Program-made: the position numbers and the translations under genes
In this document: positions 6,601 through 9,350 of the stretch, in pieces
How positions within the stretch are numbered: position 1 is the stretch's first letter
Layout: each line of letters opens with the position of its first letter
NCBI RefSeq assembly: GCF_964355755.1
Contig: NC_092670.1
Coordinates: 32,600,388 to 32,664,387, forward strand
From: Antedon mediterranea
Taxonomy: Eukaryota > Animalia > Echinodermata
Length of the DNA stretch: 64,000 bases
Direction: 5' to 3'
The notes under the pieces: generated by a model
The model's input: only the letters and a program-made list of their open reading frames with translations
Database searches by the model: none
Told to the model about the DNA's origin: nothing

Positions 6601-9350
6601 ATCTGTGATAGGTGATGTCCATCTGTGATAGGTGATGTCCATCTATGATGGGTAATGTCCATCTATGATTGGTGATTTCCATCTGTCACAGGTGATGTCC
6701 ATCTGTGATAGGTGATGTCCATCTATGATGGGTGATGTTCATCTGTGATGGGTGATTTCCATCTGTGATGGATCATGTCCATCTGTGATTGGTGATGTCC
6801 ATCTGTGATGGGTCATGTCCATCTGTGATGTGTGATGTCCATCTATGATGGGTGATGTACATCTGTGATGGGTGATGTTCATCTATGTTGGGTGATGTAC
6901 ATCTGTGATGGGTCATGTCCATCTGTGATTGGTAATTTCCATCTGTGACGGGTGATGTCCATCTGTGAATTGAACATTCATTGATGATATTACTTTTCAG
7001 AATAGAATGGTTGATTCATTAACATGCATTTTGAATGAATTCTATGTGTAGATGATACACTTTTGAACCCTTCAAAAAGATGTACTAGGATAATTTTCTT
7101 TACACTTGGACTACGGTTGATATCTAGACTTGTTCTACCACCAGATCCATTGAGCGAGTGAGTCTTGAACACATGTCAGTGTTATGGTTGTGGATTACAG
7201 TTCCACTTTCTTAACTGCCCGGCTATTCATTAAAATTAGAAAAGATAAAAAGTTAATTTTAAATTAAAGGATGACTGGTCTTTTTTTTTCAGATTGTTAT
7301 GGTGGTCCTGGAGTTCTATGGATTATTATTGGGATTATCATTGGAATCATCCTGGTAGGATTAGCCCTTCTGTTAATCTGGAGATTACTCACATTTATCC
7401 ATGACAGAAGAGAGTTTGAGCAATTTGAGAAAGAGCGACAAGATGCCAAATGGGAAGGGGTGAGTTTACATATTCAAACTGACTTGACTTTGACGATTGT
7501 GCTTACAATTGAATATCAAACTGCATATTTTTATGGAATTTGTTTATATTCTAGAGGTGGGCTTATTTTCTAGAGGTTGGATTATATTCTAGAGGTGGGC
7601 TTATATTCTAGAGGTGGGCTTATATTTTAGAGGTGGGCTTATATTCTGAGTATGTATATATACTCAATTTCAGATTTGTTTACAGAACAAATCTAAGATA
7701 TTTATAATCTAAATCTATAAAACAGCTTTATGTTTTTGACAAAATGATTTTATTTATTTTCAAAAGATTTGATATTATACATACATTATTACATCCATGT
7801 TGTTATGTTTTTCGTGTATTGATTCAATTGAATAGATGCTTGGCTACCAAACAGCTGTTCCTCATGAAACATGAAATTATTCATTAAAAAAAATCATTTC
7901 AGAATATAATGTTTACTGTATTCATTAATTATTCCATCAGATTGTTTCTCAGTCATTGCTCATCTTTTGTGCAGTAAATAAATCCATTTTGTATCAAAAA
8001 ATTCAAATACATGATCATAAATACAGGATTTCAAATCTGTAAATCATTCTAAGTCATTTTTATGTCTCTTTGTAATATTTGCTACATAATTATTTAAAAA
8101 AAAACCCAAGCAAATATTTTTTTAATAGATGTAATTCTGACTGAGTTTGGAATATTTCGCTTAAGTCAATTATATTTGAGGATTTTCCATAAGTGGTCTT
8201 TAAAAACACTAATAGTAATACCCTCTTATCTAAGTTAATGTTAGGCAGTTCCAAGTTGGCCCCCCTCACTTTTCTATGAAGCAAAAAAATAGGATGTTAG
8301 GTTAAGTTCAGAATTAAATTTAACAAAATTTCAAAAACCTGGATCCACCACTGTAAATACCATTTAAGGGAAGTTCATAAATATTTATTGACTTTACAGT
8401 AAGGGAAATATCCCATGCAAGTATGATTTTAGAATCATGATAATGTTTAACTGGTAAACACAGCCATTAGGTCTTGACATATGTTTTTTTATAAATTGTT
8501 GTGAATGCTTCCATAAACATATTTATTCATTGCTTGCTTGATCAATGCTTTAGGGACATAACCCGCTTTACAAGCCCTCTACATCAACATTCAAGAACCC
8601 CACCTACTCTGCCAAGCAAAATAGCTGATTTTGCTTAATTGCTTCTCATGTTATACTCTTCAAAAGGTAGGTGCATTCATATTTGTAATACTACAGTGCT
8701 CCTGACTTAAGCTCTGTCTAGACTATCAAACTTTATATGAAAAAAAAAAATGTGATGTGTTAACATATGGACTGGATGATGTCATATCACTACCATATCA
8801 TGGGCATATATTATACCATAATATTTAGGCACATCACACTTTTTTGTCAACCTAGTTTGATAGTGTAGACAGAGCTTTATATTTGAGCATCACTTTTGTT
8901 TTCATTGGATCAGAAAGAAATATCAAAAACAACTTGTCAAGAAATTGCAATACAGTACAACAATTTAACATTTTTTTTTTTCGTGTTAAAAATGTGCTAA
9001 ATATGTTATTTTTTAAAACATTGAGTTTGATATTAGTCATTTTCAAGCCTGAAATAGCTGTTTGTCCATTGGTATTTATTATGATAACTCTTTCATTCCT
9101 TTATGCCTGTATTGTTATTTTAACTTCTGCACAACACTCAATCATAATTTCAGCTATACATACTCAGTAGCCTACATGTTGCCTGGTTAAGTTTGTCCTT
9201 GGCAATATGCCTGAATAAAATAATAATAAAAATTGTTTCTTTTAAATATTTCAGGGGTCAAATCCGATATTTAAACCCACAACTACCACTACTATGAACC
9301 CAATGTTTGGCACCACTGAAGAAGAAAGCCCACTGAAATTCAGCAGATAA
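532..9350 (+). CDS. ITGB: Integrin beta subunit (beta1/betaPS-like), 5'-partial multi-exon gene with two alternative last coding exons
   Basis: GT-AG exons 532-621, 963-1165, 2006-2096, 2211-2353, 3074-3155, 3486-3561, 4021-4139, 4795-4884, 5188-5320, 5944-6054, 7293-7459 (1305 nt, phases compatible), then 8554-8628 or 9255-9350. Encodes end of I-like/hybrid domain (DSSNVVDVI), CDCDC, Cys-rich I-EGF repeats, beta-tail, TM helix and LLIWRLLTFIHDRREFEQFEKE, the integrin-beta juxtamembrane signature. Confidence 0.96.
963..1165 (+). CDS. ITGB: Integrin beta exon (hybrid domain)
   Basis: ttttcag/gtaagt; SITSKIEM...ECAKLALGDTISFLLDITV. Confidence 0.92.
2006..2096 (+). CDS. ITGB: Integrin beta exon (hybrid end, CDCDC)
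   Basis: ttcag/gtagct; RSFKVGPLSFVEKLEVLVEAICDCDCEQIK. Confidence 0.92.
2211..2353 (+). CDS. ITGB: Integrin beta exon (I-EGF1)
   Basis: ttgcag/gtgagt; [29 protein letters not shown]. Confidence 0.95.
2810..3015 (+). mobile_element. tRNA-derived SINE (degenerate)
   Basis: A-box TGGCGCAGTGG and B-box GGTTCAAG head followed by a non-tRNA tail. Confidence 0.6.
3074..3155 (+). CDS. ITGB: Integrin beta exon (I-EGF2 part)
   Basis: tttgtag/gtaagt; VCSGQGQCKCSVCLC. Confidence 0.93.
3486..3561 (+). CDS. ITGB: Integrin beta exon (I-EGF2/3)
   Basis: tcacag/gtacgt; RIISGDFCECDTNDC. Confidence 0.93.
4021..4139 (+). CDS. ITGB: Integrin beta exon (I-EGF3)
   Basis: ttttag/gtaagt; GQCIC...CLCMDGYTGEFCTC...CIARNG. 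Confidence 0.93.
4388..4695 (-). mobile_element. tRNA-derived SINE with Deu-like central domain
   Basis: Homologous to the copies at 54057-54380 and 26308-26659. Confidence 0.75.
4795..4884 (+). CDS. ITGB: Integrin beta exon (I-EGF4)
   Basis: tgtcag/gtaagt; LVCGGRGYCECNQCKCDEGYDGQACEC. Confidence 0.94.
5188..5320 (+). CDS. ITGB: Integrin beta exon (beta-tail domain)
   Basis: ttacag/gtaagt; ECDANKPCVKCHFKEGE...CEETC. Confidence 0.93.
5402..5812. repeat. Tandem repeat, ~130-140-bp unit x3
   Basis: Repeated GGAAGGACTGTCAGATGGACAATGATCATTGCAGAGCAGTTCAAGATAAG. Confidence 0.85.
5944..6054 (+). CDS. ITGB: Integrin beta exon (beta-tail domain)
   Basis: ttttcag/gtaagt; CKYKDENQCVVSF. Confidence 0.92.
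6299..6968. repeat. Minisatellite, 20-bp unit (ATCTGTGATGGGTGATGTCC), ~33 copies
   Basis: Stays in exact register with the 10-bp sequence blocks; source of spurious H/P/S-rich ORFs. Confidence 0.97.
7293..7459 (+). CDS. ITGB: Integrin beta exon (transmembrane + membrane-proximal tail)
   Basis: ttttcag/gtgagt; WIIIGIIIGIILVGLALLLIWRLLTFIHDRREFEQFEKERQDAKWEG, ends in phase 0. Confidence 0.97.
7545..7650. repeat. Minisatellite, 19-bp unit x5
   Basis: TTATATTCTAGAGGTGGGC repeats. Confidence 0.9.
8554..8628 (+). CDS. ITGB: Integrin beta alternative last coding exon A (NPxY tail): GHNPLYKPSTSTFKNPTYSAKQNS*
   Basis: gctttag acceptor in phase 0; two NPxY motifs with canonical spacing; TGA at 8626-8628. 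Confidence 0.92.
   Translation, partial: GHNPLYKPSTSTFKNPTYSAKQNS
8710..8876. mobile_element. Palindromic MITE, PIF/Harbinger (Tourist)-like
   Basis: TIR AGCTCTGTCTA(C/G)ACTATCAAACT, TTA on both flanks; related copies near 28779-28925, 29090-29175, 30749-30900, 36167-36235. Confidence 0.8.
9255..9350 (+). CDS. ITGB: Integrin beta alternative last coding exon B (NPxF tail): GSNPIFKPTTTTTMNPMFGTTEEESPLKFSR*
   Basis: atttcag acceptor in phase 0; two NPxF motifs with the same spacing as exon A; TAA at 9348-9350; AATAAA candidates downstream near 11430 and 11583. Confidence 0.88.
   Translation, partial: GSNPIFKPTTTTTMNPMFGTTEEESPLKFSR

Follow-up and report, generated by a model that had tools for sequence, protein, structure and literature searches.

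Can a single integrin beta gene of the crinoid Antedon mediterranea provide the same receptor with two different cytoplasmic tails? The question is raised by a stretch of 64,000 nucleotides (assembly GCF_964355755.1, contig NC_092670.1, positions 32,600,388 to 32,664,387 of the forward strand; hereafter the window), in which the exon for the transmembrane (TM) segment is followed by two exons, A and B, each with its own stop codon. Exon A encodes a tail with two NPxY motifs and exon B a tail with two NPxF motifs. A first-pass annotation of the sequence proposed that the two are exchanged by splicing. Here, exon A is found to be a cassette that is spliced on to exon B. A second isoform, which skips A and ends in the B tail, is probably produced as a rare and likely tissue-restricted form, in a layout like that of exon D and exon A of vertebrate ITGB1.

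Both tail exons are immediately preceded by an AG acceptor and are in frame with the phase-0 donor of the TM exon (Table 1). These acceptors, the stops and the translations are as the first-pass annotation had read them, and so are the features that it pointed out in the two tails: the spacing of the motifs, here 8 residues, is identical in A and B, tyrosine is replaced by phenylalanine in both motifs of B, and B contains a run of threonines. The W-to-N linker is four residues long in both isoforms. Double NPx[YF] motifs occur only twice in all six frames of the window, and these two are A and B. Both match positions 27–44 of the Pfam profile Integrin_b_cyt, its last 18, with E-values of 2.2e-6 for A and 1.1e-4 for B; at 22.3 bits, B as a lone fragment is slightly below the cut-off of 23.4. 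Two homologous in-frame tail exons are thus present after a common membrane-proximal exon, and their origin by duplication, as had been claimed, is supported. The assembly around them agrees with the contigs of a DNA run (X2), which are unbroken over 6939–8735 and 8857–10341 with 0 differences, but X2 may be the assembly's own sample and so provides no independent confirmation.

Splicing was followed in X1, a single run of unrecorded tissue, available as contigs, which lose rare variants. X1 is presumed to be RNA, which its GT..AG joint supports. One of the 5 X1 records on 7240–8698, a contig of 1124 nt at a depth of 146.7, connects the preceding exon, the TM exon and exon A with the start of exon B. 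Its joint 7459->8554, which the first-pass annotation had predicted, removes 1094 bases. The contig leaves A at the donor after 8666, and the following letters are identical to the start of exon B at 9255. The GT of this donor, at 8667, had been overlooked. Since A is spliced on to B, the pair consists of a cassette and a last exon, not of two alternative last exons; in the usual mRNA, A is included as a cassette that brings the stop, and B lies in the 3' untranslated region (UTR). Inclusion of the upstream exon as a stop-carrying cassette is what is seen in a switch of the beta1D/beta1A type. Of the switch by splicing that had been proposed, the junction of the TM exon to A therefore stands, while the direct junction to B, 7459->9255, is not found in X1, and the wiring is that of cassette skipping. 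Two last exons with separate poly(A) sites were also considered and rejected, as A splices to B and the first AATAAA past the stop of A, at 9214, is within the spliced intron.

The 3' UTR has X1 cover to about 11.7 kb, with a contig depth of 286–503 over 9666–11661, versus 0–12 in intron bins. The depth over the distal 3' UTR (9414–11735) is 2–3 times the 146.7 of the coding contig, which is compatible with 3' bias, and contig depth cannot rank the parts of a gene. The stop of A is 38 nt upstream of the last junction. By the mammalian rule, a stop within 50–55 nt of the last junction escapes nonsense-mediated decay, and the 38 nt of A fall inside this distance. A short repeat of very high copy number is present at about 8700–8880 in the intron between A and B, where the summed depth of X2 contigs is in the millions. 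Repeats at this site swamped the first mapping over the region, and the joint table of that mapping is uninformative.

The TM exon is 100% identical to the A. mediterranea protein integrin beta-1-B-like (P0004, 797 aa) and 95% identical to a protein of Anneissia japonica. P0004 ends in the tail of exon A, which, together with X1, supports A as the ancestral tail in spliced form. It contains the VWA/betaA domain (Integrin_beta), EGF repeats, the TM helix and the cytoplasmic domain, according to Pfam. The exons in the window map onto it by tblastn, and the 5' part of the gene precedes the window start. In a quick IQ-TREE search with 27 proteins, without vertebrate or betaL rows and with a long crinoid stem, the two crinoid proteins form the sister group of betaC from other echinoderms (SH-aLRT 99); betaG is apart, and hemichordate genes are outside both betaC and betaG. 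Based on this phylogeny, the gene is assigned to the echinoderm betaC group. Orthology of the whole subunit to ITGB2 is not indicated: the gene is inside an echinoderm clade, and its best full-length match in the structure database is beta1.

The history of exon B can be read from its comparison with A. Over 18 alignable codons, 25 of 54 bases differ. At silent sites the divergence is saturated (pS about 1.0), against a pN of 0.29 (Fisher p 5e-6), and 6 of the 9 residues common to A and B use different codons. Nevertheless, B has no stop or indel through both NPxF motifs and its frame is intact. When 25 base changes were placed at random, both motifs were kept in 0 of 200,000 trials. B thus appears to have been selected as a protein tail for most of its history. 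In simulated neutral decay of 0.2 substitutions per site, the motif pattern was kept in 3,415 of 100,000 simulations (3.4%). Together with the intact frame over saturated silent sites, this argues that any loss of B must be recent.

The sequence before the acceptor of A may indicate how its inclusion is controlled. The preceding 60 nt contain 4 YGCY motifs, a number reached by 0.26% of 60-nt windows, whereas 12 other acceptors, some of them placed approximately, have 0–1. Two further TGCT are in the UTR part of exon A. The heptamer GCTTGCT at 8532 is within this cluster and is the single plus-strand copy of the window. It is the most enriched MBNL1 heptamer in vitro, and upstream or exonic binding of MBNL1 generally favours skipping (PMC4176163). 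The cluster suggests that A may still be regulated. Control by RBFOX or QKI was rejected, as none of their motifs is near A.

Relatives of B were sought in protein and metagenome collections. A word-based search with the A/B alignment recovered only two crinoid proteins with the A tail (2 of 16 candidates). With phmmer, B found 2 matches among 1.84 billion representatives, both repeat-like, in multiple stretches and in proteins without an integrin tail. A degenerate DNA pattern for B had 0 matches in metagenome contigs, ESM Atlas returned only unrelated clusters of low score, and an exact look-up of the B peptide had no match, nor did that of the A peptide alone. Such negatives carry little weight, given how few crinoid data exist and that clustering removes isoforms. 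Of 159 protein tails compared, 155 are Tyr/Tyr, 4 are Phe/Tyr and 0 are Phe/Phe; this set is biased to the A type, as it covers only the best 120 of 1258 matches. Annotated isoform pairs (X1/X2 of Lytechinus, Ptychodera and Patiria, and X2/X3 of Branchiostoma) were rejected as parallels, since they have one common tail or have lost it. Three isoforms of Patiria and Branchiostoma (P0030, P0032 and P0146) end inside the TM exon without a tail, and may be secreted forms or annotation artefacts.

In the metagenome, 80 integrin beta loci were collected, 76 of them with a recognisable tail. The set is redundant and apparently mostly protostome, with one hemichordate-like locus (L001), one vertebrate-like locus (L075) and none recognised as echinoderm. 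A second tail downstream is seen in 0 of the 76, of which 52 have at least 700 nt to scan (best score 4.6, versus 42.0 for B, itself part of the training set). Phe/Phe tails with a threonine triplet are seen in six protostome-like loci (L049, L054, L062, L066, L072 and L073). One more protostome-like locus, L063, has a threonine-triplet tail in which the distal motif is NPxF and the proximal one is not Phe, with no intron before the tail. With these seven, the beta2-like class of tails is found outside vertebrates. Proximal NPxF with distal NPxY occurs in 25 of the 76 loci (L012–L047 and others), also protostome-like and within the redundant set.

Several facts weigh against an isoform that skips A. 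Neither the 7459->9255 joint nor a loose end at 7459 is found in X1 at a depth of about 147 (one run, contigs only), which shows only that, in this sample, skipping of A does not give a major form. The acceptor of B is used by the donor of A, and so is by itself no evidence for splicing from the TM exon to B. The crinoid protein clusters contain the A tail only, and the B tail is seen in 0 of 24 records of the betaC clade (21 with the ancestral tail, 2 tail-less and 1 unrelated). The searches above found no orthologue of B in other genomes. The Muscleblind clue is post hoc, with 6 patterns tried under mammalian rules, and the comparison between A and B would not register a recent loss of B. 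Exon B could be a relic, a once-selected tail that serves today only as the opening stretch of the 3' UTR, with its acceptor kept for the donor of A. The splicing of A to B, the sole form seen, would account for that acceptor, and no B isoform was found in the annotation. On the other hand, the frame, both motifs and their spacing are intact despite the saturated silent sites, the simulated decay requires the loss to be recent, and the TGCT cluster suggests that A is still regulated. We regard a relic as unlikely, and consider it fairly probable that the skip isoform is made today. Within this preferred reading, the first-pass annotation suggested that B serves coelomocytes, as an immune isoform that has converged on leukocyte beta2. 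The closest matches of B among solved structures are indeed two leukocyte tails. However, the idea gains no support here: the sole regulatory clue is of the Muscleblind type, a form of control associated in vertebrates with differentiated muscle or neurons (PMC11837677), and the four-residue W-to-N linker of B differs from the three residues of mammalian beta2 (PMC12637224). An immune role is accordingly doubtful.

The likeness of B to beta2, noted in the first-pass annotation, is real at the level of the tail. In the structure database, the best matches of B are the tails of beta2 (E 0.0063) and beta7 (E 0.013), and no beta1A match is found at E up to 10; A matches the tails of beta3, beta6 and beta1D, with one weak beta2. 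It can be speculated that the pair is homologous to exon D and exon A of ITGB1 through one duplication in the deuterostome ancestor. The switch would then predate vertebrates: the ancestor of beta1, beta2 and beta7 would have had an ancestral-type cassette and a Thr-rich last exon, the tails of beta2 and beta7 would descend from the downstream exon, and the crinoid default would be reversed. Besides the tail matches, the order of exons at L075, where the beta1D-like exon comes first after the TM exon, is consistent with this. The phylogeny is also consistent, given the sister position of the gene to betaC and the published grouping of urchin betaC with the vertebrate paralogues beta1, beta2 and beta7 (PMC1145181). 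The best full-length match is beta1 with 652 bits, versus 608 for beta3. Against such an old origin, the 756 nt of UTR of the hemichordate-like transcript L001 contain no second tail, the isoforms listed for hemichordates and amphioxus have either the ancestral type of tail or none, and B lacks a match to beta1A. In supplement S2 of a survey of exon duplications, the human event is assigned an age of at least 'Vertebrates' (PMC9741552). Further, the Thr-rich Phe/Phe class is also seen in separate protostome-like genes, which favours convergence, and the tail of L062 matches beta2 first (E 7.1e-4), better than B does. The beta2 likeness was therefore rejected as proof of homology. A single deuterostome origin is thus quite improbable; the Phe/Phe Thr-rich class probably arose repeatedly, and the likeness of B to beta2 is probably convergent.

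If the skip isoform is made, the switch could work as follows. By default, A is included, the receptor has the ancestral two-tyrosine tail and its stop, and B follows as untranslated RNA, as in the observed mRNA. When A is repressed, plausibly by Muscleblind in differentiated cells, 7459 would be joined in frame to 9255. The product, likely in a minority of cells, would be a receptor of 804 aa in which both motifs have Phe and the stretch between them contains five threonines. Its tail may still bind talin and kindlin. It would escape tyrosine phosphorylation, and could be tuned by phosphorylation of threonine, which in beta tails exchanges filamin for talin/kindlin (PMC7604772). Beta1A tails with Tyr changed to Phe form active integrins, yet alter focal contacts and migration (PMC2148458); by analogy, the receptor with the B tail would be expected to stay adhesive with changed focal contacts and migration. 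That such tail swaps matter is indicated by vertebrate beta1D and beta1A, which differ several-fold in talin binding (PMC2132630). The first-pass annotation had opposed a Tyr-regulated tail to a Thr-regulated one. The difference in tyrosine holds, while the threonine part was overstated: A also keeps Ser/Thr between its motifs, and most beta subunits are described as having a conserved threonine motif at this place (PMC7604772), so that the contrast between A and B is one of degree for threonine and absolute for tyrosine only. The exon pair itself may go back to a duplication in tandem of the last exon in the echinoderm lineage, separate in origin from exons D and A of vertebrate ITGB1.

Table 1. 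Features of the integrin beta gene in the window.
Feature	Position	Strand	Basis
Upstream ectodomain exons, about residues 339–717 of P0004	535..6054 (bounds approximate)	+	tblastn of P0004, Pfam
Transmembrane and membrane-proximal exon	7293..7459	+	Phase-0 end, GT donor at 7460; 100% match to P0004; spliced in X1
Acceptor region of exon A, four TGCT (YGCY), candidate Muscleblind repression element	8494..8553	+	Motif count
Exon A, 113-nt cassette: NPxY/NPxY tail 8554–8625, stop 8626–8628, 38 nt of UTR, GT donor at 8667	8554..8666	+	X1 contig, C-terminus of P0004
Exon B reading frame: NPxF/NPxF tail, five-Thr run, stop 9348–9350	9255..9350	+	In frame with TM exon; Pfam and structure matches
Common long 3' UTR	9351..11740 (end approximate)	+	X1 cover; AATAAA at 11430, 11583 and 11740

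Elsewhere in the window, a single open frame of 399 aa on the minus strand (15883–17082) encodes a G protein-coupled receptor of the rhodopsin family (Pfam 7tm_1, E 1.2e-48); it is apparently intronless and lies tail-to-tail with the integrin gene. A tandem array with a 20-nt unit occupies about 6300–6970, within the intron preceding the TM exon; X1 gives no cover in bins 6318–7091. Further high-copy repeats are at about 2450–2830, 4500–4640 and 11800–12400.

Integrin beta tails switched by splicing are already known from vertebrates. In the open-licence literature, which includes few subscription journals, alternative beta tails were not found described for any invertebrate, crinoids included; the survey cited above counts fly myospheroid among convergent events, located in another region (PMC9741552). 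If the crinoid layout is used in the same way, either the same solution has evolved twice in one gene lineage or it is older than vertebrates. One ectodomain with either a two-tyrosine or a tyrosine-free tail would be a natural pair for a direct test of the tail tyrosines and the threonine switch. As the second tail is concealed within sequence annotated as 3' UTR, standard annotation would overlook other cases of this kind.

Among known tails and switches, betaC of Strongylocentrotus purpuratus has the same type of tail as exon A, and its clade is sister to the crinoid gene, but no second tail isoform is seen in the betaC records examined. Integrin beta2, like B, has Phe in both motifs and a threonine triplet before the distal one. 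Beta2 and beta7 are, however, separate vertebrate genes and not splice forms, the W-to-N linker of mammalian beta2 is one residue shorter, and the full-length crinoid protein has a much higher score against beta1 than against beta2, for which the entries cover the ectodomain only. The protostome-like Phe/Phe paralogues have the same derived class of tail as B, but as separate genes in which the tail is continuous with the TM exon and no splice choice exists. The closest parallel is ITGB1, in which a common membrane-proximal exon is followed by two homologous tail exons (PMC2173276), catalogued as a tandem duplicated exon (supplement of PMC9741552). As in the crinoid, the ancestral-type exon comes first: at the vertebrate-like locus L075, the tail exon next to the TM exon is beta1D-like (E 5.5e-7). 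Vertebrate exon D contains a stop codon, and exon A is joined to it downstream as UTR. Both vertebrate beta1 tails are described with NPXY, whereas the motifs of crinoid B both end in Phe. In vertebrates the A isoform is ubiquitous and the D isoform is muscle-specific (PMC2173276), while in the crinoid the upstream exon gives the observed form and the skip form is unseen. The crinoid arrangement is not a beta2, but would work like the beta1D/beta1A switch with its default reversed.

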